From Takakia lepidozioides (Eukaryota; Plantae; Bryophyta): DNA of 64,000 nt. Below are positions 16,506 through 61,047 of this stretch, in pieces; the stretch's first letter is position 1; every line of letters begins with the position of its first letter. The notes beneath the pieces are model-generated. The model ran no database searches and had not been told where the DNA came from. It worked only from the letters and a program-made list of their open reading frames with translations. The stretch lies in NCBI GenBank assembly GCA_030704615.1, contig CM060733.1, positions 38,440,001 to 38,504,000 on the forward strand. The letters run 5' to 3'. A program made the translations under genes and the position numbers.

Positions 16506-16554
<49 letters not shown>

Positions 16555-36018: not shown

Positions 36019-37126
36019 ACGACTCAGGTCATTCTACTTGTAGTGAGAAAGTTAGTTTGCCATGACATTATTTGATCCCGAATCTAAAGTCTAAGATGAT
36101 TGAGTCTCTCATGCCCTTTTCAAAGTTCTTTGGATTTCCCAAGGCAGACATGCTTTAGAATGAGTTGTAGTGCCTACTCTATAGACGTCACCCTGTGGGC
36201 AGTTGAGATTACGTGGCGGGTGTCAAACTGAATGCGACATTTCTCTCTAACTCAGATTTTGCAGCTGATCCAGTCTGGACTTGAGTGGTAGTAAGGAAGA
36301 GACCTTCCAGTAATTTATTCGGCAAACAAAATGGTCTAAAGCATTTGTCAGCCGTGTTCAGGCATGTACAGAGGGCGCAATAGTTGGCCCATCTTCTCAG
36401 AGTGCATGACTGGGAGGTATTGTAATTTTATGACTTCTACTCCATTGTTCACTGTTGCAGTGAAAAAAGAAAGAAACCTGGTTGTCTAGATGGTAGAAAA
36501 CTGAAATGTTTTTGTAAGTTATAGTTCAAAAACTAAAACTAAACAAGGTGACAATTTCATTGGCAATTTTGTTGTCCGTTGTCCACCTCGCATGAATCAC
36601 AGAAGACTGTATGCATGTAGTTTTGCATGGAAAAATGCCCAACGTGGGCATTGGCTCCAAAATCAAGGCAAGGTTCCTCATCACCTGCCAGGCCTTTTGG
36701 ACTGTTGGAGTTGTGATGCTGGTTAGATACAAATTTCACTTTATCTCAAAGCTAATACTTCATAACACTTGTACATTTGAAGTTATGCTCTGACATGAAC
36801 CTCAACTCAACTCTGACATAACTTTTGAACAAGTAATGTTCATAAAAATACTTCTGCTTTTGTAGGACAGCAAATGCTTTGAGGTAGGGGATTGGGAAAG
36901 CACCTGTGTTAAGATACCTCCTGGAAAACAGGTCTGTGCACATAAGGGACAAGAAACAGACTGCCATGATGACAATGCAAACACCCAAAGTTGAGAAGAT
37001 TTGTTCAGCATTCTCTGTAAGAGGAAGATCTGGAATATCAACTTTGCCAAAGTTAATTGTCGAGTTCCCCAATTAGTCTGGAGAAGGTGCTTGGTTTAAG
37101 CAAGGAAGAGTCATTCATTTCGTATT

Positions 37127-39667
37127 TTACCAATAGTCTCCACAGGAACAAACTCCATCTTTGAAGTGGTGAAAGCGGTTAACATCCCGTACGACAACCG
37201 GTCGCCCAACAATCTTTGAGATAAACTGGGTGGCGGAGTGGCAGTCACCACACACTCGAAGGTTCTTGATAATGCGGACAGTTGTCCCGGGGGGCGTGCT
37301 GATCAGCCCAAAAGCGATGGCCAGTCTCTCACTGTGGAGGCAAATGGATACTCGCTTTTTCTCCTCTTCCACATCATGCAATACAAAGCGTGTGTCAGGC
37401 ACGTACCCAGCCTCCTTCATCTGCCGCGACAATATCTTCAGCACAGCATGGATTTCCTCAATTTGTGGATGCAATTTGTCATCCACGACAAATGTATGCA
37501 CGTAATTCGCGACCTCAATGCAGCAGCAACCTGGATCCTTTCTGACACCTCTGTCCTTCATCATTTTTCTCACCTTTGCAGTATCATCCCACCTGCCAAC
37601 CGCCGCATAGATGTTCGATAGCAGCACATAAGTTGAGGCATTCTGTGGATCCCACTTGAGAAGGCATTTTGCTACACGTTCTGCTACCTCCACATTGCCA
37701 TGGTTTCTGCACGCACCAAGCAACACCCCCCACACTGCAGCACTCGATTCAATTGGCAACTTTTTAACGAAGTCCTCGGCGTCATCCAATTGCCCTGCAC
37801 GGCCAAGAAGGTCCACCATACAGCCAAAATGCGGGAGTGTCGGAGTGAGACTATGATCTTGACTCATTGAATCAAAGTAGTGTCTGCCTTCATCCACTAG
37901 GCCCACATGGCTACATGCAGAGAGAACACATATAAAAGTGATACAGTTTGGCTTCTCCTGCATACAGTCAAATAAACGCAGGGCCTCCCCACTGCACCCA
38001 TGCTGAGAATATCCTGCGATCATTGTGTTCCATGAGATTACATCTCGCTCAGCTATATTGTCAAACACTTGGCGTGCATCCTCTATGCTCCCACATTTGG
38101 CATACATGTCCACAAGGGTATTCTCCAGAATAATATTTGGCTGAATTCCAGCCTTGATGATATCCACATGCACCGCTTTCCCTTTTTCGAGGGCTGCCAG
38201 GCTGGCGCATGCATTGAGGACGCAAATGAATGTGACTTGGTTGGGCATCACCCCTTGCCGGATCATTTGCTCATAGATCTCAAAAGCCTCCCCACCACGT
38301 CCATGCTGGGCATATCCTGCAATCATTGCATTCCATGAGACTACATCGTGCTTAGTCATATTGTCAAACACTTGCTGGGCATCCTTTATGCGACCGCATT
38401 TAGCATACATGTCGATGAGGGTATTCTCTAGAGGGATATCTTGTGCAATTCCCGCTTTGTTGATAGCAGCATGAACCTCCATGCCTTTTTCCAGGGCCGC
38501 CAGGCTGGCACACGCCTTGAGAATACAAATGAATGTGACCCTGTTGGGGGATACCCCTTCCAGTATCATTTGCTCATAGGTCTCCACAGCCTCTCTACCA
38601 CACCCATGCTTCGCATGTCCAGCAATCAATGCGTTCCACGAGACCACATCTCGCTTAGCCATATTATCAAACACTTGACAGGCGTCCCTCATGCTCCCAC
38701 ATTTGGCATACATATCAGCAAGGGCAGTCTCCATAATGATATCTCCTGCAATTCTAACTTTCTTTATCTCAGCATGTATTCTTCTTCCCTGTTCCAGGTC
38801 TCCCAGGCTGCCACACGCATTGAGGGCACAAGCGAATGTGACTTTGTCTGGGGTCACCCCCTCCTGTATCATTTGCTCATAGATCTCCAAAGCCTCCCTA
38901 CCACACCCATGTTGTGCATATCCTGTGATCATAGTGTTCCAAGAGACTAGGTTTCGGTGAGTCATAATGTCAAATACCTCACGCCCATCCTTCATGCTCC
39001 CACATTTGGCATACATGTCAATGAGGGCTGTCTCCAGGATTATATCCGGCACAATCCTGGCTTTTAATATGTCAGCATGAACCTCTTTGCCCTTTTCCAG
39101 AGCTGCCAGTTTGGCACACGCCTTGAGAACACAAATGAACGTGACCCTGTTGGGTGTCACCCCTTCCCACCTCATTTGCTCATATATCTTCATTGCATCC
39201 TTACCACACCCATACTTGGCATATCCTGCTATCATTATATTCCATGTACACATATCCCGTTCAGGCATTTGGCCAAACACTACATTTGCATCCACCACAC
39301 TGCCACACTTGGCATACATGTTGACGAGGGTGTTGAGTAGAAAGATATTCGGCTTGAATCCACTGTGAATAATGTGGGCATGTACCTGTTTTCCCTCTGC
39401 CAGGCCTCGTATCTTGATGCACTCCTGCAAGAGACAGACATAAGTACTGAAGTCTGCCATCATGCCTCCCTGTTTCAAAATGTGGAGGGCCTCTTTCAGT
39501 TGTCCTGCCTTACATAACATTCTCACATCCCCACAAGTGCCAGGAGAGTTCCCGTTGAGTCCCTCTCTAAATCCTCCACTGACCGTAGCGGACATGCTTG
39601 GTTCAAACCTCTGTGCTTGATTCAACCCTGCCCTCCTGCATGACTCCAGACTCTTAGCTACAAACAT
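37127..39667 (-). CDS. PLS-E-DYW pentatricopeptide repeat protein (organellar C-to-U RNA editing factor), intronless, about 846 aa
   Basis: Repeated PLS triplets (VSWNAMIAGYAQHG, PNxVTF..LxAC, LIDMYAKCG), E domains, PG box (DPGCCCIEV), HSERLA..CGDCH deaminase signature, terminal CSCGDYW. First ATG at 39667. Confidence 0.96.
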   Translation of the reverse strand: MFVAKSLESCRRAGLNQAQRFEPSMSATVSGGFREGLNGNSPGTCGDVRMLCKAGQLKEALHILKQGGMMADFSTYVCLLQECIKIRGLAEGKQVHAHIIHSGFKPNIFLLNTLVNMYAKCGSVVDANVVFGQMPERDMCTWNIMIAGYAKYGCGKDAMKIYEQMRWEGVTPNRVTFICVLKACAKLAALEKGKEVHADILKARIVPDIILETALIDMYAKCGSMKDGREVFDIMTHRNLVSWNTMITGYAQHGCGREALEIYEQMIQEGVTPDKVTFACALNACGSLGDLEQGRRIHAEIKKVRIAGDIIMETALADMYAKCGSMRDACQVFDNMAKRDVVSWNALIAGHAKHGCGREAVETYEQMILEGVSPNRVTFICILKACASLAALEKGMEVHAAINKAGIAQDIPLENTLIDMYAKCGRIKDAQQVFDNMTKHDVVSWNAMIAGYAQHGRGGEAFEIYEQMIRQGVMPNQVTFICVLNACASLAALEKGKAVHVDIIKAGIQPNIILENTLVDMYAKCGSIEDARQVFDNIAERDVISWNTMIAGYSQHGCSGEALRLFDCMQEKPNCITFICVLSACSHVGLVDEGRHYFDSMSQDHSLTPTLPHFGCMVDLLGRAGQLDDAEDFVKKLPIESSAAVWGVLLGACRNHGNVEVAERVAKCLLKWDPQNASTYVLLSNIYAAVGRWDDTAKVRKMMKDRGVRKDPGCCCIEVANYVHTFVVDDKLHPQIEEIHAVLKILSRQMKEAGYVPDTRFVLHDVEEEKKRVSICLHSERLAIAFGLISTPPGTTVRIIKNLRVCGDCHSATQFISKIVGRPVVVRDVNRFHHFKDGVCSCGDYW

Positions 39668-40084
39668 TGACACTCAAACTTGAAGGATCTTAAAGCTTGT
39701 ACCTAGGTCCTACTAAGATCTCTTCATGAGGATAGATGCCTTCAAAGCTTGTGTGGGTTACCTCCCAGATCACAGCATGGAAGTGCATTCTTGATAAAAT
39801 ACCAACTCAGAAACCATTTTGTCCTTTTATGGAGGGATAGCTAGTATCACTTCTAAAAATTGTGGTCACCTCCACACTGACAAATGTTATAACATAACAT
39901 AATTTGTGTAATACTTTCCCACAAAAATTTCTTGCTCCATTTCTGTCCAAAGGGAGAGAAGCAATTAGCCCTTAATTCAAAGTACATAAGATTTTGCTCC
40001 TTGGAATATGCAGTGGGTGGCTCACTGTCTCCCCTCATCAAACTGTATGATGGGAGTACTTAGACAAACGCCCCATCCAGCTAA

Positions 40085-42395
40085 CTAGAAAGAGCAAATA
40101 TCCAGCAGGTCTGCAAAAGAAGAGGAGCTGTCATACTGGAAATGCCCCCACGATCCCTGCCAACCAGGGTTTGCCCCTGGATATTTCCCAGCTGCTTCCA
40201 ACACCATTTCTCCATCGACCAATAAATCAATCCACAGTGCCTCATTGTTGCTGTTGTGCTTCATATCCAGTGCTCTAGGATGGATCTGTACCCACACTCC
40301 ATCCCTGGCTCCATCAGCTATCCCTGCCTCCACAACCATACCACTTACATACTCCCCTAAGGCAGCTGAAAAGGAAAAACCAGATTACATAGCAACAACC
40401 CACCCTCCCTATCAGACACTGGTTCATCTCTGGAGTGGGACGAGGACAAGGGGGAGAGAATGTACTCATAAACCATTGTTTGCTGCAGCCTCGTGGTCAT
40501 AGACCCCACGCCCAGTTTGGATGGAAATATAGAAAAAAGGTACTACCTTCATGAGGGGCTCACTCCAGTAGTGTGGTATAAACAATTAGTTCGGGCTTTC
40601 CAGATATCCTCTAGAAAGCCCTTCACACAAGCATCAATCTGCTTTGTGTGGGAGAGAGATTGTACTCATAAGACATTGTTTGCCATAGCCTTGTGGCCAT
40701 TGACCCCGCGCCCAGTTTGAGCGGGAACAAAAGGGACAGAACCTACCTCTGTCAGGGGCTGACATTGGTAGTAAGACTTACCCTTCATATAAAGAATTAA
40801 TCCGGGTTTTTCCAGATATCCTCTAGAAATCCCTTCACACAAGCATCAATCTGCTGTGTGTGATTTGCCCAAAAACTAGGCCTCAGGAGGGCCTGGGCTT
40901 TTGGCTCAGCCTCGAGACTTTCAAAGTAGGTAAACAGGGGTACAGGCACAATTCCCTTGATAGAGTTGAAGAGAGCGTCTCTTTGTGTGGGAGAGAGAGA
41001 GAGAGAGAAAGGGTATCCTTGCAAGCATTGGCTATGGCCACCTGGAGGCTATCCTATGAATGTTACATCCTCAGAGGTAGGTTGTGGGGGATTCAACTCA
41101 TCGTAAGTGTGGATACCTAGGCCAAAACCGTCATATCTGCTAGCACACTGTCAGTGAAACAAATGCACTACAGGGGATTGAGAATAAGATGAGATAATAA
41201 TGTCAAGCACATTGTTCATATTGCAACTGCAACATCAGCCCTATACTTAAGAGGGCTGTGGTAGGCAGTCGCCACGGAATGATCCTTCTCTAGAAACCAC
41301 ATTCGAGAGGGAGAGAATGTACTCATTAAACATCGTTATCGTAGCCTTGTGGCCATTGACCCCGTGCTTATTTTAAGCGGAACACAAAGGGACAGAAACT
41401 AGTCAGGGGCTGACACCAGTAGTATGACTCACCTAGGAGCAGACAATTGATCCGAGTTTTCCAGATATCCTCTAGAAATCCCTTTACACAAGCATCAATC
41501 TGCTGTGTGTAGTTTGCCCAATAACTATGCCCCAAAAGGGCCTGAGCTTTTGGCTCAGCCCCGAGAAGGTTGGTACAGAGGTACAGGCACAATTCCCTAG
41601 ATGGATTTGAAGAGGACTCCTCTCTGGTGAGAGTACCCAGGACAATGAATCAGAAAGTGAATGTTGTCTTCAGGTTGCCCACACAACGGGCATTTGCAAT
41701 CCCCCTTTCCTCTCTGCTTTTGTTTGCTGTTCAAAGGTAGGCTTCCCGCCCTCAGTCTAGTGCCGAGGGTGGGTAAACCCTTAAACCCTCTTGAGAGAAT
41801 GTACTCATAAGACGTTGTTTGCCGTAGCCTTGTGGCCATTGACCCCGTGCCCAGTTTGAGCGGAACCCTCTTGAGAGAGAGAGAGAGGGAGAGAGGGAGA
41901 GAGAGAGAGAGTGCTATCATTACTCTGGGAGAAAATTATGCAATGCATCCGGTTGTCTGCTTCTGCTGTAACATAAAAGGCAGTCACCTTGTTGCCTCCA
42001 TTCTCCCACCATTGACTGGGGTTTGAAAAATCTTCGATCAAAAGCTTCTCCTTGTTTGTACTTTGGCTTTTTGAACATTTGTCGGTGCCGCCGACCGTGA
42101 TCATGGGCATATCTGGCCACTCATATTTCTCCGTCTCTAGGTGGCCTTGAACGTTGTCCTTCTCTCCTGTTCTCCACTGCCCCACGAGTGGCTTCAAACT
42201 GTTTGAAACAAATTTTAACACAATGAGGTTTGGGAAATAGAGAGGACAGTACAGCAAACACCTTCTTGAAACTTTCAGTCCATTGTTGGACTTGCAAGCA
42301 GAGTAGATTTGTGGAGGCATGTGGGGCCCTGTACAACATGCAGAGATGGCAGCCACGTTCCCCTTCCATGCCATGCATATTGTAACTGCTGCCAT
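40085..42395 (-). CDS. Putative two-exon ORF with one degenerate PDF (OSB-type ssDNA-binding) motif, upstream of the PPR gene
   Basis: Exon ending at 41988 (..DFSNPSQWWENGGNK, GT donor) splices in phase 0 to the AG acceptor at 40285 (IHPRALDMKHNSNNEALWID), giving a match to the F.NP..WWDNR..K.NPRAPDFKHK....ALW pattern. Confidence 0.5.
40450..41910 (-). mobile_element. Cluster of 5'-truncated RTE-X/L2-like LINE copies with (TC)n tails
   Basis: C-terminal CPLCGQPEDNIHFLIHCPGY..R knuckle and AQALL..WAN..QIDACVKGFLEDIWK in several copies. TSDs CTTTGTGTGGGAGAGAGA (40642/40981) and AACCCTCTTGAGAGA (41784/41864). Confidence 0.75.
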
Positions 42396-44160: not shown

Positions 44161-44629
44161 TAATGTCTACAGTTTGAGCTAGATGTCGTGCGCATACATA
44201 TCGCTACACAACTACATCAGTGTCCAAAACCACACAACACATGTGCACACCAAACACTAGTCTATCACTAGTCTATCACTAGTTCATCACTAGTGTAGCC
44301 ACTAGTCCAACCATTAGGCTGCCACTAGCCACCACTAGTGCAGCCACTAGTCCATCACAATCGCCCCCCTAACTAGCGCTTAGGTCCCTCTAAATCCAGG
44401 TAGCCACAAGATGTGATAGTAGCCATAGCCTCATTAAGTCCTCCATCACTGTCCCTACTACACTCAAACTCGACAAATCAAGAGGCCGAGTACAAGAGTT
44501 GCCCCATCGTTAGTTGTCGTCTTGCAACCTCTGAACTTGAGCCTGAGATCTCGGGTATTGACGCGTATGAATTTGGCCTCCCATGTCTTGTTAGCTGCCA
44601 CTAGTCCTATCCACTGCCGCTATCCCAAG

Positions 44630-45928
44630 CAGCAACGCAACCCTGCAGGTACCACCGCAAGGTTGGGATCTATCCTCCCATCCACATGTGGAAGGTGACA
44701 TGGCGCACAATTGCGCACATGGTCCTTCCATACCATGCCATCTCGATCCTCTTGAATCAACACTCCTGAAGGCAACACCTCCCTGACCCTTAGAATCACA
44801 CGTCATGCTGTGACATCCAAGGTCGTAGGCGCTGTCTGTTACAGATACACATAGTCCCCCAAGGTGGAAACGCTGAACACCTGGCCGATATCCCCCTCCA
44901 CGTATAGTGGTATATCTCAATGTGTCTCGGTGTTGGGCAATAGCAAGATTCTCAAAAGCCATAGACATGACTCTCTTGAACAACTTTGCCCGTTGGGTAC
45001 ATGCTTGTGTCCACACATCCGAATCATCCAGGTTGAGGACTACTGCAGCCTCCTTGTGAATAGATGCAGGCAAATCTGGCTCTCGGCCAAAGAGAAGGAA
45101 ATATGGTGAGAAGGAGGCAAGTGATGCTTGCTTGCTAAACCTGTAGCCCATGGCTAACCAAGGTACCTGAAGATCCCAATATCCTAGGTGTCCCTTTTGC
45201 AAGTCATACTTGCGCAAACCCCTCTTCACCGTCTGCACCACTCTCTCTGCCAAGCCATCGGCCTCAGGATGATCCCGAGAAGTGGTACGGTGGTCTATCA
45301 AGGTTTTATCACACAAAGCTTGAAACTCCCCCAAGAACTCTCTCCCTTAGTCCGTGAGTGCCTCAGCTGGAGCACCGAATCGGCTAAGCACATGATCCAA
45401 GAATGCATACGCAACCCCCTCACTAGCCTTGTAAGGCAATGGAACCAACTCAATCCACTTGGAGAAGTGCTGCACCATCACCAACACATATCTGTGGTGG
45501 CGCATCGTCAGTGGCAACGGCCCTGCGAAGTCAAGACTCCACATGTAGCCCAATCCCATGATGGGTAAAGGATGCAACTATGGTGTAGGGGCGTTGAATG
45601 AAGCACGCACCTTGTCACACACCATGCACCTAGCCACGAACTGTTGCACCTCTGTGTGCATATCACGCCACCAATACTGCCCCTGCAGTAAACTATGAGT
45701 GCGTCGCACTCCAAACTGCCCCAACTCCTCATGGGCATGCCGCACTAACCGTGCACGCTGTATTGGGTGAGGCACGATCCTCACCCGACCATTCTCCCAT
45801 ACTCGAAGCAGGTGTATCCCCTCCCACTTGAACCTCTTGGCTCGTTGCAGGATCCGATCCCTCTCCTTGGCAGTCACACTAGTTGTCGTGTCTCCAGTGC
45901 GGAGGTAGTCCAACACAACAGCACACAT
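44630..45928 (-). pseudogene. Gypsy integrase
   Basis: AHEELG..YWW..CMVC (H2C2), WSLDFAGPLP, ALTD, DHPEADGLAERVVQTVK, PYFLLFGREP, C-terminal KDHVRNCAPCHLP; stops and frameshifts present. Confidence 0.92.
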
Positions 45929-46680
45929 CCGTGGGGTGTGGAATCTGTGCGATGGCCTCTACCTTAGTCTGCTGCACCCTCAATCCTCTAGGATATATCA
46001 TGTGGCCCAGATACTCAATCTGGTTGTGAAAGAAGTTGCACTTTCCTGGATGTAATTTCAATCTATGCGCTCTCAAGCGCTCAAACACCACTTGAAGGTG
46101 TCTCTCGTGCTCCTCCACCGTAGCACTAAAGATGATGATGTCATCTATGTAGCACCGAGCAAAGTCCACCCCTACTAGAATCATGTCCGTGACTCTCTGG
46201 AACTCTGCATGAGCGTTCTTAAGCCCGAATGGTAAGAACCGCCACTGATATAGGCAATCCTTCCCGTGCTCATTGATCCCCCAGAATGTCGTCTTCTGCT
46301 TGTCTACCTCCTTGATCGGCAACTGGTGATATTCGGACCGTAAGTCCAGAGTGCTAAAGTGGCATCAAAGATCTCATCCGGTGTGGGCATGGCATACTTA
46401 TCGGACTTGGTCTGACGATTTACAGGCCGATAATCACCGCACATACGTCTCTCCGTCCAATTGCCATAGACATCCTCCTTGGCTGGCATCACCGTGGCTA
46501 AAGCATACTCTCCACCAGAGAGCTCCACCAAACCAGCCTCCCAGAGATCTTGAGTCCTCATCTGAATCAAAGACCTCTCCATGTCACTGTATCTATAGGG
46601 TCTCCGAAAGATTGGCGTGTCCGTGGCCAACTCAATACGAATCTCCTGACCCTTCAGTGCTCCCAAATCCCTCAAACTGA
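45929..46680 (-). pseudogene. Gypsy reverse transcriptase; RNase H missing
   Basis: PIFRRPYRYS, RRMCGDYRPVN, KTTFW, LPFGLKNA, CYIDDIIIFS, KLHPGKC, YLGH; joins straight to the integrase at about 45928. Confidence 0.93.
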
Positions 46681-47132
46681 AGGCAAAGCAATTCTTGTAA
46701 GCCCTCAGGAACCGCCGTATACGTCGTCTCTCTCCTCCAGTGACAATGGGTCCAATGTCAGGCTCCCAATTGTCCTCCGTAACTGCAACCTTAAGTCCAG
46801 CAGACTTAGAGGTAGGAGACGCGTCCCGTGGTTGCTATGCCGCAACCTCATGAGCAGTACTCCCTGCCTACTCAATCAATGACAAGGCCTCATCCTGCCC
46901 CATTATCTCATCCTTGAGAACCTCCTCAACCCGAGAAGAATCCCCAACCTCATCCATCACAGCCGCCTTGGCTACCAACTCCCTCTGAACCTCGAGCACC
47001 TCCCACGTGTGCCATGGATGTCTACACCCCATGGTCCTCACCGGCTCACCCCCACTCACTGCCTGTACCGTCTCGGTAGGCAGAGAGACCGTAAAGGGAA
47101 GTGCACTCTGCACTCTACGTTGCCAAGCTGGT

Positions 47133-48071
47133 AATCCAGGTCAAGCAATTGAGATCCATTGTTTGCCCCAATACCTGACGACGTGATGCCTCAGAAAGAG
47201 AAGGCACCGCCATGGTCCCAGTGGAAAAACCCACAGCCCGCTCTCGCTTGTCGGCATTAGGCAATACTAACTGCTGCAGCTGAACATCCTACAGGAGGCC
47301 TGGTCCACTATCCCGGAAAGCATGCGATCTTGGGAAGCTGAGCAGTGTAGGTAGTGCTGCTTGTGATTGACCCACCTTGTTGACCACTGCCAAAGACGGA
47401 CGATCGTCGTGTCTCACACCCTGAGACTGTCTCCCCGTGTCCAAGATGTTATCCACTGTGAGGTGTGTTGGCCGCTGCACCCCATCAAATGCACGCTTGA
47501 GTAGTGCGGGTGGCATCAAGTTAGTCCACCATAGCCGTGGACGATGAGCCCGTGACCCCACTGCAGCTGCATCCATCAATACTGCTGACCCAAGCCATGA
47601 CCGGACTTGATGCACACCGGCCATCACCCTGGCCCAAGAATCGCCCATCAGTGGCACATTCTCCAAGATGTATGCTGGAGATATAGCCTGATGAAGCTGT
47701 AAGTGACGCAAAAGCCGCATCATCTCCCAAAACAGACCCGACCTCAAGTCTCGCAATCCATTGTCATGCTCGGCTGATGAATGCCATTGGCAGGGCCAAC
47801 CTGCCACTACCAAATGATTGGAGCCAACCCGCTCCAAATCCTACGCCCCGGGCAACGAAATGTCTGCTGGCAAAGCCTGCTGATATCCACGAACTGCAGA
47901 CACCGGCAACAACTCAGGGTACTGCTGCACCAACTGAGTAACATGGCGTAGAGAGACGCGTCGTGCGGTCTCATCCCTCTCCACATACAGGTAACGCCGA
48001 ACTCGTACACCTGCATGTAGAACAACAGCCAACCCGGTGCTGATCCCGCCAAACAAGTCTAGAAGGCAAAT
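47133..48071 (-). pseudogene. Retrotransposon-encoded C5 DNA cytosine methyltransferase domain (DNMT3-like)
   Basis: One frame with two TAG stops (47841, 47289): motif I ICLLDLFGGISTG, II YVERD, III ADI, IV VVAGWPCQ, RSGLFW, VI ILENV, VIII SRAHRPRLWWTN, IX RERAVGF, X RRQVLGQTMD. Confidence 0.92.
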
Positions 48072-48454
48072 GTCTTCATCCAGACACTGTCACATGATTG
48101 GTGTGGTGTCCAATGGTGACAACTGAGGTGGTCCTAGTGCAATCCCTGCACTGTCCTCCTCTCCTGACGGTACAAAAGCCTCTACCTAGGCTTGTTGCAC
48201 ACGACAATCAGCAACCCACTGCAAATCCTTGCTCGAGCCCCACAATGGAGTGTGAGCAACCATGGCAGGCAACTCCCGCATACCATATATGTCATCCTGC
48301 TCTCCTGGAGGTGACACATCCTCTGAATGAGCGTTGCCCTCAAGCAACTCTCCAGGCCAACTCACTGCAGCTGTGAATGCTGTCAGTGTCGGCATCTTGC
48401 CTCGATGGGCAACAGCAACTCCTCCTATGAACATCACAGGGAATTGCACACGTC

Positions 48455-48795
48455 AGCCCTCCCCTGACTGCCATCCAGGCCTATATGAAGCTGACTCCTC
48501 CCAAAAATCCAGGGTGAAGCCCATGGGGTACAACACTGCCCCACCAATAAGGACATCGTACAAGACCGCGTCTGTCACAATGGCCTTGGCTCTCATCACT
48601 GAGCCATCTGTAGGATGATCTGGCTGTAGTCGGATAGCCAACTCACACCGTGTCATGCCCCGAGCCTGCTCTGATCATCCCAGAGATGTCTATATCTGGA
48701 AAGGGCATGGCTCTATATCCGCCTCCGTGAGGCCCAAGCCTGCTATAGCAGCTCTGCCCAGCATCAATGGTTGAGCTCCCAAGTCCAACAAGACT
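48455..48795 (-). pseudogene. Gypsy aspartic protease
   Basis: VLLDLGAQPLML (probable DSG, TCG>TTG) and YDVLIGG. Confidence 0.75.
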
Positions 48796-50560
48796 CACAG
48801 TGGCCGGTACCTCTTGCCTGCCAGTCCACTCAAACAGAAAATGTCATCCTGGTTGTCTAACATGACAACTTCATGTGTCACCATGGCGCACTCAATGGTT
48901 GGCCTAGCTGGCAGCTCCATCAACCTGGCAGTTGCAACTTGCGAAGGAGCCGTCGTGGCAGTCTTGACCCTCACATCCGATGATCCCTCCGGCACTATAC
49001 CTCCCACTATCTCCGCAGAAGATGAAGTAACCTCCCCACTCTCACAGAGTGTAGCTGCCAGCCTGAAACCTCAGCTGCTCTTACCCCGGTGTCGCAATCA
49101 TGGTAGCCGAGAACAATGGAGCCTGGCACACAGATGTGGCCCCCCCCAGCAGCACACTAATTGCCGTAGCCTTGGCAACACTAGGTAGTGGTGTTGCCTG
49201 TGTAGCTCTCCCCAGTCGGGCAAGAACTAGGTGACATGGACGGCGTCGACGCTGTCTCCGCCAATGTGAATGACTGAGGAAGCCTGGCCTGACGGCTTGC
49301 CTTCCCACGTTGTGGATCCAACTCCACCTCCGCACCCCATGGCTCGGGAACTCATGCTGCTCCTCGAGTCACTGCCGCAGCTTACTTCACTTGCACTAGT
49401 GGTAGTCCTGCCCTGCACATAGTGGTAGTGGTAGTGTTGCCCGGCACTAGTGGTAGTGGTGCCCCACCCACAATGGTAGTGGTAGTGGCACCCCTCACTA
49501 GTGGTAGTGCCTCCCCATGCATGAATCCCATGTCTCCCATGTCTCCTCCCTCAGGAGCAGGAGGTGGACCATCCAGCCTTGGAGCCGGTACCACCTGAGC
49601 TGTGGCCATGGCAGCGAGCCTCTGCTCTAGCTGTTGAAGCCGGTTGGCCATGCGAGGTTTACTATTTCATGAGCAGAAACCATGAGCCATGAGCCATGAG
49701 CCGCATGAGCCGCATGAGCGGTGAGCCGAAGTCTAAGATACGCGGTTTTCATGAGCGGACTTCTCCAAATTTGGAAATGCGGCAGATTAAAAAAAAAATT
49801 AAAATAATAGTTTTTAATTTGACATTGCTGTTTTTGGAAGTCCCATATCCTATAATGCGGCAAAGATATGTCGTGAGTAACAATTCCGCTCATGGTTTTG
49901 TAAATCTGCTCATGGAAAAAACTGACCTTGCAATGAGAAATCCAGTATACCACAGCAAAAGGACGCTGCATACTGGCGTGTATAGAGTATTCCGCGGTTT
50001 TATATGCCCTAACATTGGAATGAAGCTGACCCTTCTGTCACGATTGTATGATCCCCATGCAACAACACAGTCTGCAGTGCTTGAAAATTCTTGCTTCTTC
50101 CTGCATTCTGCGGGAAAGGTTTGCCACTCCACTAGGAAATGCGGTGCCGCATTACGGTTCGCACGTGCGAGAATTCTGAGGGGTTCAGTGTTCTCGACGG
50201 TCGGCGCCCTGAAGACTCGGTGCGATTATCTTACTATGACCAAGGCTGCAACTACTAGTACCTACTACGTTACTTGGAACTGCGGCGCCGCATTTTCTTG
50301 CCGGGGGTCGAATGAGATAAGCAAAGTTTGGGAGAGCAGAAAAACAAGAACCCCCAAAAAAAAACAAAATCCAGGCACGTGGAAACAGAAGGTAATGACA
50401 TAGTATTATCTTAGTTTGACCAAAATAGGTTACTGGTAGACAAGACATAAGTCAAACCTTTCTGTAGCCAAAGTTAGAGGTACTTGCAGTAGTACAGTTC
50501 TACTATAACTGAAACCGAAAAGGATGGGCGTAACATTGTCTTGTGCCCCGCAAGCCAAGC

Positions 50561-51400
50561 TCACTGGTCCCCTGGATCCATATTCAGAAGAGTGTACATC
50601 TCGTCGGGGCTCAACGCTAGTGCATGTATGAAGTGATGAGTTGTGGAATTACACCAGAGGCTCTTTAGGTACACGTAGTACAAATGCTTGCAAGGGCAGT
50701 ATGATGCCCCCCTTCTTCGCCATGATCTGGAAGTCGGTGCAATTGCAGGTGGGTAATTCTGAAATGGTGATGGTGTACACCTCATTGCGGACAACTGAGC
50801 CTGCCGTGGCCATCTGATACACACGCCCGAAGCCTGGTGGGGGCATTTATGTTGAGCTCTGGATTGTATAGTTCATCCCAAGTGCATTCCCCATCCTTGT
50901 CTCGTTCACTTTTGAGGGAGGTCGCCGTCTCTTCGGTTTTCCCCAACGGTGTGTAGGATGCTTAGAGTTGTCACATACATTTGTTCTTGCTCTCATAGGG
51001 CCGGTGGTGGAGGCTGTGGAACCGGAAATGGTTGTCTGGGGACGTCAGTGCGCTGCACCATCCAAAATCCTGCTGCAGTAAGGGCGTCGGCCTCAACCTG
51101 ACTCATATTGTATCCCGGTTCCACCAGCCACACCGGGGGAGCCTCTGGCACTGCTTGTATGCCGTACTTGGGCTTTCCATAGACACAAGTCATAATGTCA
51201 TGCCTACAGAACCAGAACTGGGTCGTCGTCGCCTCCGCAAACTTTGCATGGACAAATCTTCCCCGTGAAAGTAGGACAGGGACAACCCCAACTGGGTTCC
51301 TTCTTATCATCTATCCACAATGTTGTCGTGTATCACTCGAATTGCAGAACACTTGCCTCATATGGGGTGCCGCAGACTGACACCGAATTTGATCCACTGA
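50561..51400 (-). pseudogene. C-terminal remnant of a SWIM-finger MULE-like transposase
   Basis: FWFCRHDIMTCVYGKPKYG, YTITISELPTCNC..PCKHLYYV; frameshifted homolog of 62640-63400. Confidence 0.8.
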
Positions 51401-51564
51401 GGAGCGAGTATGGGTGGATGTCAAGGGGACGGAACTCCGACGATGCATTTTCGTCCAGGCTGCCATCAACATGTACCCCTTCAGTGGATTTTGGGCGGAC
51501 TGCCATTCGAGCTTGCGGTGGGGACGGTCGTCCCCACTACCACTTACCGTGCCTTCATGACAAT

Positions 51565-53232
51565 GGGACAGAAATGCCGCACCGCATATCCGTTCGGACA
51601 GCCATACACCCTTGCCTTCATGACAGAGGGACAGAAATGCGGTGCCGCATTTCCGTCCGGACTGCCATTAGACCTTGCCTTCATGACAATGGGGACGGAT
51701 ATGCGGTGCCGCATTTCAGTCCCCACTACCAGTTACCCTTGCCTCCATAATAGTAGGACGGAAATGTGGCACAACATTTCCGTCCCACCTACTATACACC
51801 CTTGCCTTCATGACAGTAGGGACGGAAAATCGGTTTCGCATTTCCGTCCAGACTGCCCTGAGACCCTTCCTTCATGACATTGGGGACGGAAATGCGGTGC
51901 CGCATTTCCGTCCGGACTGCCATTGGACCTTGCCTTCATGACAGTGGGGACGGATGGAAATGCGGTGTCGCATTTCCGTCCTGACTGCCATTGGACCTTG
52001 CCATCATTACAGTGGGGACGGACGGAAATGCTGCATTTCCGTCCGGACTGCCATTGGACCTTGCCTTCACTACAGTGGGGACGGAAACGCAGTGCCGCTT
52101 TTCCGTCCGGACTGCCGGAAGACCTTGCATTCATAACAGTGGGGACGCAAATGCGGTGCCGCATTTCGGCCGTCCCCACTACCAGTTACCCTGCCTCCAT
52201 AACAGTGGGATGGAAATGCGGTGCCGCATTTCAGTCGCCACTACCAGTTACCCTTGCCTCCATGACAGTGTTCCGTCCCACCTGCCATACACCCATTGCC
52301 TTCTGGAAATGCGGCGCCGCATTTCTATCCAACGACGATGACTATAGAGAAAAAAAAAATTAGGGTTCTGGTTTTTCTTACCCGCCACCCCCTGTGGTCG
52401 GAAATGCGGCACCGCATTTCCATCCAACGGGTAGAGCTAGAAAAAACAAGGAAATTTTTTTTTTGGATTTTTTTTTCTCTACCCCCTATAGGCCGAAATG
52501 TGGCGCCGCATTTCAATCCAGCGGCGATGAGAAGAGAAAAGAAAAATTTTACGGTTATTTTTTTCCCCCCCTCTACCCCCTGTTGTTGGAAATGCGGCAT
52601 CGCATTTCGATCCTGCGGGGATGACTAGAGAGGGCAAAAAAAAACAAAAAAACAAACTTCATTTATTTATTTTTTGCCTTTCACCCCTATGGACGCAAAT
52701 GCGGCGCCGCATTTCAATCCAGCGGCGATGACAAGAGGAAAAAAAGGTTAGGGTTATTGTTTTTCCTCTCTATTCCCCCTTTGTTGGAAATGCGGCGCCG
52801 CATTCCATCCAGCGGGGATGACTAGAGAACAACCAAGAAAAAAAAAAACCCCACAATTTTTATTTTTTATTTTTTTTTTCCCCCCACAGCCCCCCCCACC
52901 GTATGGACGGAAATGCGGCGCCGCATTTCAATCCAGCGGCGATGACAAGAGGAAGAAAAACGGTTAGGGTTATTTTTTTCCCCCTTCTACCCCTTGTTGT
53001 TGGAAATGCGGCACCGCATTTCCATCCAGCGGGGATGACTAAAAAAGCTGGGGGGGGGGGGGGGGATTTTTTTTGTCCCCACCCCTATGGACGGAAATGC
53101 GGCACCGCATTTCAATCCAGCGACGATGACAAGAGGAAAAAAAATGGTTAGGATTATTTTTTTTCCCCCCTTCTATCCCCTGTTGTTGGAAATGCGGCGC
53201 CGCATTTCCATCCAGCGGGGATGACTAAGGGC

Positions 53233-53266
<34 letters not shown>

Positions 53267-55025
53267 TTTTTTGTCCCCACCCCTATGGGCGGAAATGCGG
53301 CGCCGCATTTCAATACAGCGGCGATGACAAGAGGAAAAAAACGGTTAGGGTTATTTTTTTTTCCCCCTTCCATCCCTGTTGTTGGAAATGTGGCGCCGGG
53401 GGGGGAAAAAACAAACAAAGAAAAAAAAAAAAAAACTTTTTTTGTCCCCACCCCTATGGACGGAAATGCGGCGCCGCATTTCAATTTAGTGGCGATGACA
53501 AGAAAAAATAAAGTTAGGGTTGCTTTTTCCACCCCCCCCCCCCCCCCCTACCCTCTGTTGTTGGAAATGCGGCGCCGCATTTCCATCTAGCGGATGACAA
53601 GAAAAAAAAAAGAAAAAAGAAAAACTGAGAATTTTTTATTTCTTGTTTTCACCCCCTTCGGATGGAAATGCGGCACCGCATTTCAATCCAGCGGCGATGA
53701 CTAGAGGAAAAACAATCAGGGGTTATTTCCCCCCTCCCCCCTGTGGTTGAAAATGCGGCGCCGCAATTACCATCCAGCGGAATGACTAGAGGGGAAAAAA
53801 AAAAAAACACCGTCAAACGACTTTCAAAGAGCACGGGTGGATGGCAGTCGAGACGGAAATGCGGCACCGCATTTCCGTCCTGACTCACATCCCCCTTTGC
53901 ACAATGATCATCATTTGGGGAAAAGAGGTGGGCGGGATGAACCTGGCGACGGAAATGCGCTGCCGCATTTTTGTCCGGACTGACACCTACCATCACTTTA
54001 TACCTAGTGGGACGGAAATGCGGCACCGCATTTCCATCCGGGTTCCCACTGGACCATGCCTTCCTACCATTGTGGATGGATATGTGGTGCCGCATTTTTC
54101 CGTCCTAACTGACACCTAAGCATCCTTGACACATGGTGGGATGATAATCCGGTGCCGCATTTCCGTCCGGGCTCCCATTCCACCATGCATTTTTAACAGT
54201 CTGGACGGAAATGCGTTGCCGCATTTTCGTCCGGACTGACACCTAAGCATCCCTTAACACCTGGTGGGACGGAAATACGGCGCCGCATTTCCGTTTGGGG
54301 TCCCACTGGACCATGCCTTTCTACCATTGTGGATGGAAATGCGGTGCCGCATTTCCTAACTCACACCTAAGTATCCTTGATACATGGTGGGATGATAATC
54401 CGGTGCCGCATTTCCGTCCGGGCTCCCATTCCACCATGCATTTTTAACAGTCTGGACGGAAATGCGGTGCAGCATTTCCGTCTGGGCTCCAACTGTACGA
54501 TCCCTAAACAGGTGGTCAGATGGAAATGCCCGCATTCCCGTCCAGACATTGCTTTCCCGAGAGTCTGGACGGAAACGCGCCACCGTATTTCCGTCCGGAC
54601 TGATAGTGGACCATCCCTTCATTTTTGGTGGGACGGAAATGCGGTGCCGCATTTCCGTCTAGAAGACCACTTCAGTTTGCGTACTTGGCAGTTGAAGGGA
54701 AATGCGGCGCCGCATTTCCGTCCGGACTGTCATTGTACATTTTCTTAATGACAGCTTCGACGGAATTGCGGTGCCGCATTCCAGGCCCGCTACCACTTAC
54801 TGGCAGACAGGACAGCGAAACGGAAGTGTGGCCCGCATTCCCGTCGAACTTGCCAAACAACCTTTTCTTCATGATAGGATGGCCGCAAATCCAGCCATCC
54901 AGCCTTACCATCCTGAGAATAGGGACGGAAAAGCGGTGCCGTATTTCCGTCCCAGCTGCCCTCCACGCTTGCCTTCAGTAAAGAGGGTTCACGAAGGGGA
55001 CGGAAATGCGGTACCGCATTTACCA
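51565..55025. repeat. Array of about 45 palindromes GGAAATGCGGCGCCGCATTTCC with related spacers
   Basis: Manual count. About 64-bp period at 51570-52230 and 53950-55020; alternating 90-120-bp units with A/T tracts at 52300-53870. Confidence 0.95.
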
Positions 55026-58000
55026 CTGACTGCCATCCTCCCTGGCATCTTTATCCTCTTTCGTGATGCAGTAGGGAGGTATCCTGATCGAACGGCCACT
55101 AATGCCGCATCGCATTTGGTCTGTTGACTCATAGAGGCTGAAATGGCAGTTGAAGGGGTCATTGCCAACACATATTCGGAGGCGGTAATGCCGGACCGTT
55201 GCATCATCATCACTGACTGTCCAACAGACACTAGACCTCTATTTCTTCGAATTCAATTTTCCAGCGACGTAGGGGCCACCTGCCTCACGAGGAGACACGT
55301 AGGCCCTGACCTTTCGAATCCATACGGTGCATCTCCGCCGTTTGATGTCATCTTTCGCTGGTGACTCTTTCACTGCTCTAACACCCCTTCCAACACCATT
55401 CTTTGCCTCATTTCTTCTCTTTAGTTTCTCTTATGTTGCACAGCCTCATAGTGAGGTGGTGGAGGGATCGTAGGGCTCTGAAGACCCGCAGGACGAAAAG
55501 GAGGAAGCTACTGCAGCCCGCACACACCCTCGACCTTCTAGCATGGGTCCTCCTGTCGGGCCTAACCTTGTGCGCTTCAAGGACGTGCTTTGGAAAGGTA
55601 AAGGTTTCAAGTCGAAAGCAGCAGAGAAAGAGGCAATTTGACGATGAAGATGATGGAGAGTCGCCAACATGGGTCGTCCCCTTCTCCAAAAAATTAAAGA
55701 GCATGAAGCATCAGGCGGTTGTTGAGGAATATACTACCCCATCGGATCAGTCCCCTTCCCCTACGAAGAGCAGACGGGGCGGTGGAGAATCGGACGAGAA
55801 CGGAGGAGTCCCCTTCCCTTGCAAAGAGTAAGAAGCAGAAGGGGGCGAAAGCAAGGGCAGAGCAGTCTCCAGCAGCAAACCCCTCCACATGTTGAAGCTC
55901 AGTTCTTGCAGGAGTTTCAAAAGGAAACCGGGGGCAACTCTGCAGAAGCTCGGGCAGCTGCTCCGACGACGATCTCTAGCACTCCTGTCCTGGTCGCTCT
56001 TTCAGCGGATGTGTAGTGTGAAAAGAAGGGGCGTGAATCCCCTTCTGTATAATTCTAATTGTGCTTCCTTCCATTCTAAGCGGAGCAAAAGAAAGAAGGT
56101 TCTTCTAATCTGTCCAACTGTCGTCACTTGGCTGTGGGTTTCCCTCAGCTCCTTCGTGATCAGAGTTCAAGCAATCCTCATCCACGCCGCAGCGGAAGAG
56201 AAGACATGGATGGGGAGTCAAATTGTTGTTCACTCTTGGTTCTACTTTTACACAACATCCTCTACCTGCAGGTACAGCACCAACTATGCTGCCACGATGT
56301 ATTCAGTGATGCAATCAGCCCTATGTCAGTGATAAACACTGCCCTTGTGGGCAGTTCCCTTGGTCTGCAACACGTCGGAAGCCCCTTTTTGTAATGAGAT
56401 CACGGTCTAGGTGGGTGGACAGCTCAGATCTGCCATGAACTGCAGGCCCACTAGTTTGATCATTCAGGGTTCATGTCTTCTTGACCTTGCCTCTCCATTT
56501 GTCCATCCCTCATCAACCCTTTCTCCTTTTCACTTTTTCTTTCTCTCACACTCCTTTTCCTTGGTGTGTGGATTCCTCACTTTTTTCACAACAGCATGGC
56601 TATGATGCAATGCAAATGCACATCCAGCCAGGCATCCAGTGCATCCATCATTGAAGTCAACCTTGGTTACAAGACATGATCTGCCCCTCTGTCGGTCTTT
56701 CTCTTTTCTCTCTCTCCAGTGACTGGTCCTTGCACTATCTTTCCCCAAGTGGATCCTATTTGGCCAAGGTGCTTCACAACCCTTCTACAGATCTCAAATC
56801 ACACACCCTGACAGCTCTCTTTTTCTCCTCAAATGCAAACCTCAGTCATTCACATGTTGAGAACACTTCTATAAATCAGATCCAAACCCCAAAACAGTAT
56901 TGACTTTTCTTCCCCATCCACGTCATCCCTCTCAGTTCTTCAAATCCGTTTCTGTCTGACCATCCCTGTTCTCCTTTATCCACCAAGCTAGTTCTACACT
57001 GGCTCCACTGTTTTAACATCCAGGGCTGTTTTGCCGCTTATGCTGGCTGAAGACATTGAAAATAAAGAAAAGGAACACAACAACAGCAACCATTCTGACC
57101 CTGATGTGAGCTATCCTTGTCCCCTCTCTCTTTTTCCTAATGACAGTGTAACAACAGGTGCATCCATCTCCACCCTATCTGGTTTGAATTCCAGTGTCTT
57201 CATTCCATTTTCAAGGGCTTTTCTCCTCACATTTCTGTCCCCTTCAGCAGATACAAGAGACAGTTCCAAAAACTTCACAAAGTCATCCTAAGTGCCCAAA
57301 AAGAGAAGCCAACACTCTTAGAACTTATCTGTCTTATACTCGTGTGAAGCGGTGGTTCTGCCTGCTAAGCTGGCACCTCACCATCGCTGTCATCAGCCAT
57401 ATTCAAACGCTTCTTCTCATCTTGATTCCAGTTCTCATCATGTCATGACGGCTTGCTTCATCAGCTGCCAACATCCTTGTGCTTGCCAAACCTCTACCCT
57501 ATCCTTCTACATGTGTACTTCTGCCCTAAGGATTGATGTGTGCTCCTACAGCTCTAAAGACAGAAGGCAACTACAAGTCTTTAATTACAGATAACCTGAG
57601 TCGCATCCACACCAGCCTGCACTTCTCATTCCCCAACAGCTGTTGCTGCGCTCCATCTCCTCATAACTGTACTCTTCAAGACAATGGCGGCAGCGGTAGT
57701 GCACCGCTCTTAGCACCTGCTCAGCTTTCAAAATTGATTATTACCACGCAGAAGAGGCACCGCTTCTCTTTGCACAAAATGCCAAGCAGATCCCTTAACG
57801 TCGCGCTTTAAGGCAAGCTGATTCACATGGCGCAGGTGTAAGTTCCCAAGCCAGCCTGCCTGACAACTCCACGGCAGCAGCTGTGAAGAGTTGCCCGTCG
57901 TCTTCCTCCTCGTTTTCCTCAGCTCGAGTTTCTAGGTTAAACATACGCGACGAAAATCATTCATTCCAAGGATGAAAAATGCGCATGTTATGACTTAGCC

Positions 58001-58241
58001 ATATTTTGTCCTGGCAGAGCAAGAGCATAGTGTTCCCATGGAATTACCTGTAGGCCTGGGTAATTCCCTCCCGACATTAGTACCAGGCACTCCCTTTTTC
58101 ATCAATGCCGTAATTTGATGCCCAACAAAATTTTCAATGTTACTCCCCTGCATTCACACTACAGATGAAGGTGTTGTTTCTTAACATGGGGAGCTCGACT
58201 TCTCCTACCTAGAATAGGACTTTCGTGATAATAGGGGAGGT

Positions 58242-59626
58242 ATGGACGACTACATTCTCCCACATGATCTGCCCGGCTACATTCCCAAGAATACAGGCAC
58301 GGCTCTGGGTGGTCCATCTGAACAACCCCTTCCCCCACCCCCAAAAATGTCGCAAGAGGATTTTCAGAGACTCTGTCGAATGGTCTCCCTCCTGATAGTG
58401 AGGCTTGCTCTCGCAAGGGATGTGGATAAGATGAAGTTCGCATTCCAAGAAGGCTATTGGCTGGGGTCTGCCGCCTTCTATGTTTCCATTGAGGATGAGG
58501 AAGGTGGATCGCATGCCCGACAACAGAAGAGTTAGCAGCCTAGGGTCCCCACTACCACACTCGCAACACGGAATTCAAAAAAATGCTGAAGGATGATGGC
58601 GGTGTTTGGTGGCCAGCCAAAATCCCCTCTAACCCCTCTTACTATGAAAGCTGTGAAAACTGGCTCAGCAAAAAAGACACTCTTCAACCTCCGGGGGGGG
58701 CACCCGTGCGAGCTAGTGGAAATGAAGGGCAGGCCAAAGTTGGAGCCAAAAACAGTGATTCAGTGTGCGAATGAGAGTTTTTTGAGGGCATTGGATGGCC
58801 GGCCGGCCGCCAAGTTAGCACACATCAAGCAAATGGAAGGCCTGAAAGCCAAAGCTCTAAGGAAGGCGACTGCAGAAGAGCCTGTAGACACTCCAAGATT
58901 TGTAGCCATGATGGATTTCTTTGCAATGACAAGTGAAGGGAAGAATTGCATGAGGCGTGGAAAACGGACCGACTGGTCATTGATTTGATCATCTTTGGAT
59001 ATTCCAGATGGAGAGCCTCTGGAAGGACTGGATATTGTGCCCTCTTGGAGCAAGTATTTCTGAGGACTTTTGGAAGAAAGGGTTTGGGCTAGCCTGCATG
59101 GTATTGGATGACAAAGGTTGTGTGGTGGTCCTTGCCAGCAAAGGCCAAAACACAGAGGCGGGAATTGCCAAGTGGACCCGTAAGAGTGGCGTCCCAATTC
59201 TGAAGAAGATGTGGACCTGCATCAACTCAATGGGCCTTCGCTCCAAGGGAAACCAGATAATTACCGTACTGCCAAACAGAAACCGGTTGGCATTTGTAAC
59301 TGTGGATTGGAATGCGGTGCCAAATTCTGCTTATGAATGGGGTCCATTGGATTTCGGCGGCACGGCATCCTTGCAAAGGATTGCGGACGATGCTACAGGA
59401 ACAGTATTTCAACACTCAGGAGACTATGTATGGAGATGAGAATGAGTTTGCAGACATTGCCCTTCATTGCTTATACTCCACAAGATATTTGATTTCCCCC
59501 CTTACAGGGACTTGCACGGATGAAGATTGGCGGCTCTATGAATGGAGCCGTTTTCAGTTTCCATCTGTGCCATGGAAACCATGCGCCGCTTTTCTCATCG
59601 GACTGTACGTACCCGGTGGAAAATAA
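58242..59626 (+). pseudogene. Decayed transposon accessory gene: ParB/Srx-like N-terminal segment plus amino-methyltransferase-like segment
   Basis: LCRMV..VRLAL..DVDKMK..F..GY..GSAAFYVS..DEEG..W..H...N.EF..ML.DD; then across frameshifts VIDLIIxDIPDG..VPSW..EDFWKKGFGLACMVLDDKGCVVVL. The family call is recalled pattern similarity only. Confidence 0.4.
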
Positions 59627-59797
59627 GGTGCGCAATTGCTTTCACGGATCCTATGACCGCGGATAAGTACCCTATTCCTGTGGACAATCATTTCTGAAAA
59701 AAATTACTGCTCATGATTTTTTCGGCAGTTACGAGTCTGCTCATGGCTCATGCCGCTCATGGCTCATGGCTCATGAAATAGCAGCCCCCGGCCATGC

Positions 59798-60780
59798 CTT
59801 GGTCAAAACCCTGACCTCCACGTCCTTGGCCATGTTGAGCTTGCCCTTGGCCTGCACCTCGTGCCTGGCCACCTCGTCCTCTCTGGGCTGCTCCACCTCG
59901 CCCCCGGCCACCATTGTTCCCTTGGAACTGGCCTGGTCGCAACTCAGGATGCAAACCATAGCACTGGGCCTCTCCATGCCCATACTTGCCACAATGCCCA
60001 CACTGCAACTGTGCAGGCTATGCCAGTGCCAAACCATTGTCTCCCTTTGGGCAATCCTTCTTGACATGGGGTCCTCCATATGTCCAACACACCACATCCG
60101 CCCGTTGTTGGCTTGCAAATGAAGGGAGAGACCCCTACATCTGAGGTCCTCTCTGCCCTTCCCTGGGCTTCACCTGAGCCCCCTTGTTGCCTTGAGCACG
60201 TTGAGGTAATGGCTGGCTAGGAGCACCACTACCCCGTGGTGCCTCCTTAGCAAATCCCACCATGACCACTCGTTCCTCCTCCATGTTGAGCTCTATCCAC
60301 TCTGCCAGCAAAAATACATTTGCTAAGGTAGGTTGGGCCGGTTGTAGGAGAGTTGCATCCCACACCCTTCTCATCAGCTCCTTGTCCAATATCCTGTACC
60401 AGAATTGGACTGCCTCAGCTTCCGTAACCCCTTGGGTTACATTTATCAAGCGCCTCATGTGAGTAAAAGCCTCCCTCAAGCTCTCAATAGACTTCCTCTG
60501 GAACTCTTGCAAGCTCCTCAACTTCTCTATCCTCACCCCTTGGTAGTTCCTTCTCAACTCTTCGAAGAACTCCACAACAGGGTTGAAGGCAGGCACCGCC
60601 GGTGTGAGTCCTCCCGATTCACAATCCGAATCAGAACCTTCCGTAGAAGACACAGGAGGTGAAGGTGGCCTAAACCGCACACCTTGTCTCGTATACCTGT
60701 TAGTATCGTTAGTGCTCGTACCGGCACTTTCCCCAGTAACTAGTGGCACCTCCGTGTTGACAAACTGTCACTCAATCGGT
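59798..60780 (-). pseudogene. Gypsy gag (N-terminal part; continues at 49653-49000)
   Basis: EFFEELRRNYQG..LQEFQRK..ESLREAF..FWY (retrotransposon gag) and CGHCGKYGHGEAQC knuckle. Confidence 0.85.
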
Positions 60781-61047
60781 CATGCACATGTCTCTAACCG
60801 GGGGTTGCTATTCCATGAGCTCATGAGCGGTGAGCTCATGAGCTCATGAGCGGGCATGGCTAACCCATGAGCCGCAAAGTAACACTTCGAATTTCGGCAG
60901 ATTTTTTTCGGGCCAAAAACTATAAAATCGAAGATTTCCGCGCTCATGCTGGAAGCACTCCGCTCATGAGTACCAGTGTACGCTCATGACTTGGAGCCCA
61001 GGCTCATGGACCGCCAGGCCAGGTCATAGAATAACAGAATTCTGGGC

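Follow-up and report, generated by a model that had tools for sequence, protein, structure and literature searches.

A DNMT3-like methyltransferase domain ahead of a conserved UAG in a Ty3/gypsy retrotransposon family of mosses and liverworts

Retroelements with a DNMT3-type cytosine methyltransferase (DNMT) have been described as SymbioDIRS-Dnmt3 in Symbiodinium and as KnitGypsy-Dnmt3 in Klebsormidium nitens, and the Gypsy-type element was reported from K. nitens only (de Mendoza et al., 2018; PMC5890265). The SymbioDIRS-Dnmt3 domains carried out de novo CG methylation in yeast; the KnitGypsy-Dnmt3 domain gave no methylation there, a result its authors regard as inconclusive (PMC5890265). What such element-borne DNMTs are for has been a standing question since 2018, and neither Symbiodinium nor Klebsormidium, the hosts known so far, is easily manipulated. 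Marchantia is absent from the text of PMC5890265 and from the three of its supplementary files that we searched, and the available parts of PMC6453930, 10.1101/363937, PMC6317226, PMC10952607, and PMC11982613 make no mention of such elements. No description of bryophyte or chlorophyte members, or of the UAG readthrough considered below, came up in our literature search. Sarre et al. (2025; PMC12344493) and a 2026 preprint use the wording “streptophytes” in the parts available, a term that includes land plants, so that their supplements may already list bryophyte copies.

Here we analyze a window of 64,000 nucleotides from Takakia lepidozioides that holds a decayed element of this kind. Its family represents the KnitGypsy-Dnmt3 lineage among mosses and liverworts; the expression layout differs, and chlorophytes have a sister arrangement.

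The host locus and the anatomy of the element

The host is a moss. The window contains an intron-rich gene for plastid elongation factor G (EF-G; 30362-36019, forward strand; identified from protein relatives and a tree), which shares 93% identity with Sphagnum and 89% with both Ceratodon and Marchantia; in an EF-G tree of 23 rows it falls inside a moss clade of seven rows (support 98/96), apart from Sphagnum and from the Physcomitrium/Ceratodon branches. A PLS-E-DYW PPR gene of the land-plant type lies at 37127-39673 (reverse strand; Pfam and protein search), and a protein search with it placed the host no more closely than land plants, the best listed identities being at most 70%. The initial annotation had placed the host among land plants from the DYW-PPR gene, and the position of EF-G among mosses agrees; this grouping rules out an algal or contaminant contig. 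Several other features were seen around these genes. A partial EF-G duplicate at 16071-16917 is 93-97% identical to pieces of 32470-33234, and 185 bp of the EF-G upstream region (29815-29999) are copied exactly at 5377-5561. An open frame of 208 amino acids with BAH and PHD domains, which we take to be SHL/EBS-like, is located at 20691-21317 (forward strand) and is possibly a retrocopy, and a remnant of a Ty1/copia gag, zinc knuckle, and protease occupies 23160-24566 (reverse strand). A short dispersed repeat family beside (GA)n tracts occurs at 33788-34071, in an EF-G intron, and at 40442-41884, between the PPR gene and the retroelement. The search for tRNA genes in the window found none.

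Mapping relatives onto the window revealed a decayed Ty3/gypsy copy on the reverse strand with the order gag, protease, DNMT, reverse transcriptase (RT), a deleted RNase H, integrase, and a cut PHD finger. The N-proximal part of gag, with degenerate CCHC knuckles, lies at 59790-60758 (identified by knuckle positions and by tblastn with Marchantia ORF1, which gave 50-52% identity over 60647-59931), and the C-proximal part, located by mapped relatives, at 49226-49651. They are separated by a 10.1-kb insertion (49654-59788), which has terminal inverted repeats that match imperfectly and a target duplication of 9 bp (8/9 match), and which we take to be Mutator-like from its MULE features; its scanned ORFs had no Pfam match. 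A second, related insertion (about 60779-64000) also interrupts gag, and both have CATGAGC-rich ends; the first contains long arrays of a palindromic repeat with a 64-bp period (51.5-55 kb), and the second a Cys/His motif near 62.8 kb, presumably SWIM-like, with no Pfam match. Since the second insertion cuts off the start of gag, that start and the 5′ LTR lie outside the window.

Upstream of the DNMT, the aspartic protease region (48456-48806, reverse strand) was recognized by homology to relatives; it is decayed, with an altered catalytic motif (48791), and a Pfam search of the window copy gave no protease match, while relative P0035 matches Asp_protease_2. The RT (45924-46771, reverse strand; PF00078, E 5e-25) has its YIDD at 46151 and a frameshift near 46360, and just downstream of it the RNase H is deleted (59 nt in the window vs. 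304 amino acids in the related element L001). We thus found the gag-protease-RT-RNase H-integrase order with an RVT_1-type RT, the RNase H being present in relatives L001 and P0007. A contig of sequencing run X5 runs on for 871 letters at the deletion point, so other copies have sequence at the RNase H position. The integrase (44626-45916, reverse strand; HHCC and core, PF17921 and PF00665) has a frameshift near 44860: the integrase proper spans 45916-44861, and the stretch down to 44626 breaks off in the first part of a PHD finger, a domain that relatives possess. A candidate polypurine tract (44370-44361) and a candidate 3′ LTR of 176 bp (44359-44184; TGT...ACA) follow on the same strand, both read from the sequence. 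No second LTR copy was found in the window, and no LTR pair was found in one locus. A candidate 439-bp 5′ LTR was seen in a relative (L004 8838-9300; L001 1-140), followed by a conserved stretch; the TG...CA ends of the candidate LTRs thus come from different loci, the 3′ in the window and the 5′ in L004. No TGG-type tRNA primer-binding site was seen after the candidate 5′ LTR, and since the conserved stretch lacks an initial TGG, priming may bypass the standard tRNA 3′ end. Overall, the matched frames of the window copy contain 18 in-frame stops and several frameshifts; the copy is dead, as the initial annotation had it, although the damage goes well beyond the two TAG stops that it had counted.

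The methyltransferase domain

The C5 cytosine methyltransferase domain occupies 47133-48083 (reverse strand) in one frame interrupted by two TAG stops (47843 and 47291), and was identified from its motifs, PF00145, its relatives, and its fold. All the motifs quoted in the initial annotation are found in order in this frame of the minus strand: I, LDLFGGISTG (48062-48033); IV, AGWPCQ (47804-47787); VI, ILENV (47669-47655); VIII, AHRPRLWWTN (47549-47520); IX, RERAVGF (47246-47226); and X, RRQVLGQTMD (47183-47154). This is the canonical, non-DRM order of motifs I-X, which rules out a DRM-type methyltransferase. The translation, with X placed at both stops, matches PF00145 above the gathering score (E 2.2e-7, 31.1 bits vs. 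a cut-off of 22). The three best relatives share 69-71% identity with the window domain over 99% of its length and are all uninterrupted.

Comparison with DNMT3A/B was made on the intact relatives P0003 and L001. P0003 (71% identical to the window) matched DNMT3A in PDB with E 4e-11, DRM2 with 4e-3, and M.HhaI with 1e-2. The natural DNMT domain of L001 was modeled with pLDDT 93 from a 20-row alignment, used in place of a single-sequence fold that reached only pLDDT 34, and the Foldseek matches listed for it were all DNMT3A/B/C (best E 1.2e-20, TM 0.74). The window domain is DNMT3-like by motifs, sequence, and predicted fold, in line with the earlier reading, with DNMT3A/B as the best PDB matches in sequence and fold. 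Language-model features of the L001 domain were equally similar (0.96) to a streptophyte cluster and to two mostly phage DNMT clusters, and the phage matches may be a lead on the donor of the DNMT.

The bryophyte clade (see below) keeps FGG, PC, ENV, and RxR. The DNMT of the family is probably catalytically active. It is conceivable that the domain is kept instead because its role is not catalytic or is directed at RNA, for instance the binding of nucleic acids in packaging; the inactivity of the Klebsormidium domain in yeast, inconclusive per its authors (PMC5890265), would fit such a role, as would motif IV, which reads WEC in many algal relatives rather than WPC (58 vs. 40 of the best 150 representatives). 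With the residues above retained across the bryophyte clade and a full DNMT3 fold predicted, we regard this role as very unlikely.

The DNMT has also been under constraint. Between the window and L001, pS is saturated (0.71-0.94; DNMT 0.78) and pN is 0.23 in the DNMT, 0.16 in the RT, 0.12 in the integrase, and 0.30 in the protease; the saturated pS together with the low pN shows, at the level of codon comparison, that the DNMT has been under purifying selection. As to base composition, CpG observed/expected is 0.51 in the window element, 0.43-0.47 in host genes, and 0.27-0.28 in L001; depletion in the window element does not go beyond that of host genes, although it is stronger in L001, so that composition carries no mark of self-methylation. 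Neither CpG nor CHG depletion was discriminating.

Distribution and ancestry of the family

Among 36 longer relatives of the window DNMT, 17 are from Marchantia polymorpha, one from Calypogeia fissa, and two from Sphagnum; one is labeled Klebsormidium nitens and one Haematococcus, and none carries a vascular-plant label (14 of the 36 have no label). The proposed extension of these elements into embryophytes is thus confirmed by 20 named bryophyte proteins. One Marchantia cluster at 90% identity has 18 members, several of which are Gag-protease-DNMT frames of about 1280 amino acids; such uninterrupted M. polymorpha frames are annotated merely as hypothetical proteins. In sequencing runs of the host species, 46,740 contigs in X1 and 23,026 in X3 lie on the element, and the summed depth in X1, which is not a copy number, is 0.49-0.95 million for the DNMT bins, comparable to the 0.54-1.31 million of the RT/integrase bins. 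Within this very abundant family, the DNMT is a fixed component. Depth over the DNMT in these runs and relatives with the domain rule out a one-off insertion. A scan of IMG/VR with Marchantia ORF1 gave no match.

A representative protein search returned 192 proteins at E 1e-30 or better. The best 150 of them comprise 57 with the DNMT alone, 16 of type A (DNMT after the protease or before the RT), and 77 of type B (DNMT after RT/RNase H and/or directly before the integrase). Type B includes P0246 and P0033, and its named members are from Scenedesmus sp. PABB004 and Haematococcus lacustris, so that the same DNMT lineage is present in chlorophytes, where it occupies a second position; this arrangement widens the lineage beyond streptophytes. 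We built a DNMT tree of 108 rows, leaving out DNMT-only fragments, partial domains, and host DNMT3, and an RT tree of 52 rows without reference RTs (both midpoint-rooted, with quick and FastTree supports). In the DNMT tree the window falls in a clade of nine rows with Marchantia, Calypogeia, and Sphagnum (100), which lies inside a type A group of 26 rows together with the K. nitens protein KFL_009030040, presumed to be KnitGypsy-Dnmt3 (98); one row labeled type A is placed with type B. In the RT tree the eight type A rows, again including the window and the K. nitens protein, form one side of a branch (93). Since both trees group the window with the Klebsormidium element, the window element belongs to the KnitGypsy-Dnmt3 lineage and is not a new capture: the trees show that its DNMT and RT share ancestry with the Klebsormidium element, and they speak to shared descent, not to the donor or to vertical inheritance. 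An independent capture of the DNMT is ruled out by the same groupings.

In the Klebsormidium model and in P0255, by contrast with the window and L001 (see below), one frame runs through both the DNMT and the RT. Most called ORFs of chlorophyte-type elements start shortly before the RT, which suggests that a break between gag-protease and RT is general in these elements; contig truncation is an alternative. We tentatively suggest, as a scenario with less than an even chance, that one ancient Gypsy lineage of green plants has carried a DNMT since before the chlorophyte/streptophyte split, and that the domain moved across the gag/pol boundary, to the RNase H-integrase position in chlorophytes and ahead of a leaky stop in CARYYA context in bryophytes; the DNMT of mosses and liverworts would then be a capsid-level component that supplies each particle with a de novo methylase, and its very many copies might make it a second source of de novo methylation in hosts, Marchantia included.

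A candidate readthrough stop and comparison with known systems

In both the window and L001, the DNMT ends the Gag-protease-DNMT ORF (ORF1), and the RT is not in the same ORF. The initial annotation had the DNMT between protease and RT on the pol strand; the order holds, with the correction that the DNMT is part of the Gag-protease ORF, a stop common to a relative separating it from RT-integrase. The conserved ORF1/ORF2 junction (46829-46848, reverse strand) holds an in-frame UAG (46837-46835) followed by CAA-CCA. ORF1 of L001, itself interrupted by a single stop ahead of the DNMT, also ends in UAG-CAA-CCA; past this UAG, RT-RNase H-integrase stays in frame over 766 codons or more. The 20 nt of the junction do not differ between the window and L001. 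Of the exact matches that the two elements share, only one of 23 nt in the integrase zinc finger is longer, and the linker around the junction is otherwise poorly conserved (38% amino-acid identity). A further TAG of the window, 11 codons upstream of the junction, is absent from L001.

UAG-CAR-YYA is the Type I readthrough consensus of tobamoviruses, benyviruses, and pomoviruses (PMC3542737). Of the 18 in-frame stops of the window copy, the one at the junction has the CARYYA context and the 17 others lack it (chance frequency 0.13-0.4% per site), and UAG-CAR-YYA, a downstream ORF in frame, and local nucleotide conservation are found together in two sequences. The first in-frame ATG after the stop is at codon 48 in L001 and codon 85 in the window, inside the conserved N-terminal stretch of the RT. 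The stop is covered by a 6-bp hairpin in the folds of both elements; these folds do not surpass shuffled sequences in stability (z -0.96 and -0.64), so we claim no 3′ stimulatory structure. The junction DNA comes from two elements (window and L001), and Marchantia contributes protein ends: 21 of 30 bryophyte-clade proteins end 67-110 amino acids past motif X, two more have the same C-terminus, two end earlier, and five (P0007, P0010, P0014, P0016, and P0023) run on into pol. From these features, we judge the chance that the junction UAG is read through as moderately better than even.

If pol were expressed instead through splicing or through a sub-genomic RNA of its own, in the manner of Ogre-like elements, the conserved block would be a splice or structural signal, and DNMT abundance would still be tied to Gag. 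The block begins with AG|GT and holds a YAG, its small hairpin covers the stop, and some database gene models join ORF1 to the RT; the three pol-continuing models that we inspected lack part of the junction, which fits gene-model introns and also real splicing. On the other hand, inspection by eye found no in-frame acceptor common to both elements downstream, and no U-rich sequence on the upstream side. ORF2 keeps the exact frame in the window as in L001, and a contig of run X5 (which may be DNA) crosses the junction unspliced. We consider splicing or a sub-genomic RNA unlikely. What appears new here, as read from the two elements, is a DNMT that ends the Gag-protease ORF before a conserved UAG-CAA-CCA, apart from the RT frame.

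A DNMT placed ahead of the conserved stop is probably produced in large amounts together with the capsid protein. With readthrough as the preferred reading, one genomic RNA would give abundant Gag-protease-DNMT, and occasional readthrough of the UAG a small share of full polyprotein, so that RT-integrase would stay rare. Inside the particle, the protease would free the domains, the DNMT included, and newly made cDNA would be methylated by the DNMT ahead of its integration. The copy inserted by the integrase-PHD would then already carry the mark, and the PHD finger probably guides where it goes. That the DNMT reaches capsid-level abundance through a leaky UAG, is packaged, and methylates new cDNA before integration seems to us slightly favored as a whole, and we take the cDNA to be the substrate of the element DNMT with the same slight preference; the inactivity of the Klebsormidium domain in yeast, inconclusive per its authors, and a CpG depletion no greater in the window element than in host genes speak against this reading. 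The enzyme might instead act in the nucleus in trans, on genomic copies or host DNA, where it would control copy number or serve as an additional de novo methylase: enzyme produced in bulk with Gag would exceed the need of one cDNA, the family is very abundant, and a benefit to the host was raised by de Mendoza et al. (PMC5890265). However, the DNMT itself lacks a domain for chromatin targeting, the PHD belonging to ORF2, and fusion to Gag puts it in the particle by default, as is established for retroelements; we therefore think nuclear action in trans improbable.

Frameshifting and spliced short-gag RNAs are the two main strategies for Gag excess in a 2025 review (PMC12786077). If our reading is true, readthrough joins the ways in which plant LTR elements keep Gag in excess, and a leaky stop after the DNMT would imply selection on DNMT dose. 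In SIRE1, readthrough links pol and env. The purpose of the DNMT is testable in Marchantia, a genetic model for which methylation mutants exist; in addition, hidden element DNMTs may confound bryophyte methyltransferase inventories.

The domain shares the canonical DNMT3 motif order with host plant DNMT3 (PpDNMT3b), which is present in non-flowering plants (PMC6453930), whereas host DNMT3 genes have an additional conserved domain (PMC12344493). The EpiLTRs found in Cymbomonas and Euglena are likewise LTR elements with a cytosine DNMT, but theirs is the sister of DNMT4 and is accompanied by DAM and a chromodomain (bioRxiv 10.64898/2026.05.21.726589). The REXdb chromovirus clades Chlamyvir and Tcn1 are recognized by a C-terminal chromodomain and by RT clade; of the 27 relatives in our Pfam scan, seven showed a PHD finger and none a chromodomain. 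PHD fingers in retrotransposons were already known (PMC6673714), and the available passages of PMC6317226 do not mention PHD or methyltransferase. Like the Type I readthrough viruses, the family has UAG followed by a CAA-CCA that fits CARYYA, with the downstream ORF in frame; unlike in the viral cases, the UAG would part Gag-protease-DNMT from RT-RNase H-integrase. SymbioDIRS-Dnmt3 is similar in having a DNMT3-type domain in a retroelement, and differs in being of the DIRS class with a tyrosine recombinase, in its reported independent capture, and in having the DNMT in the RT ORF (PMC5890265). The closest system is KnitGypsy-Dnmt3, likewise of the Gypsy type, whose DNMT3-like domain is not rearranged and also lies between the protease and the RT (PMC5890265). 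Its host is an alga, while the window family is found in a moss, with relatives in liverworts and Sphagnum; its DNMT shares one Pol ORF with the RT, whereas here the DNMT ends the Gag-protease ORF before a UAG; its repeats are described as DIRS-like (PMC5890265), and the ends seen here, a candidate 3′ LTR in the window and a candidate 5′ LTR in L004, look like those of ordinary TG...CA LTRs. As a further difference from KnitGypsy-Dnmt3, relatives of the window element carry a C-terminal PHD finger.
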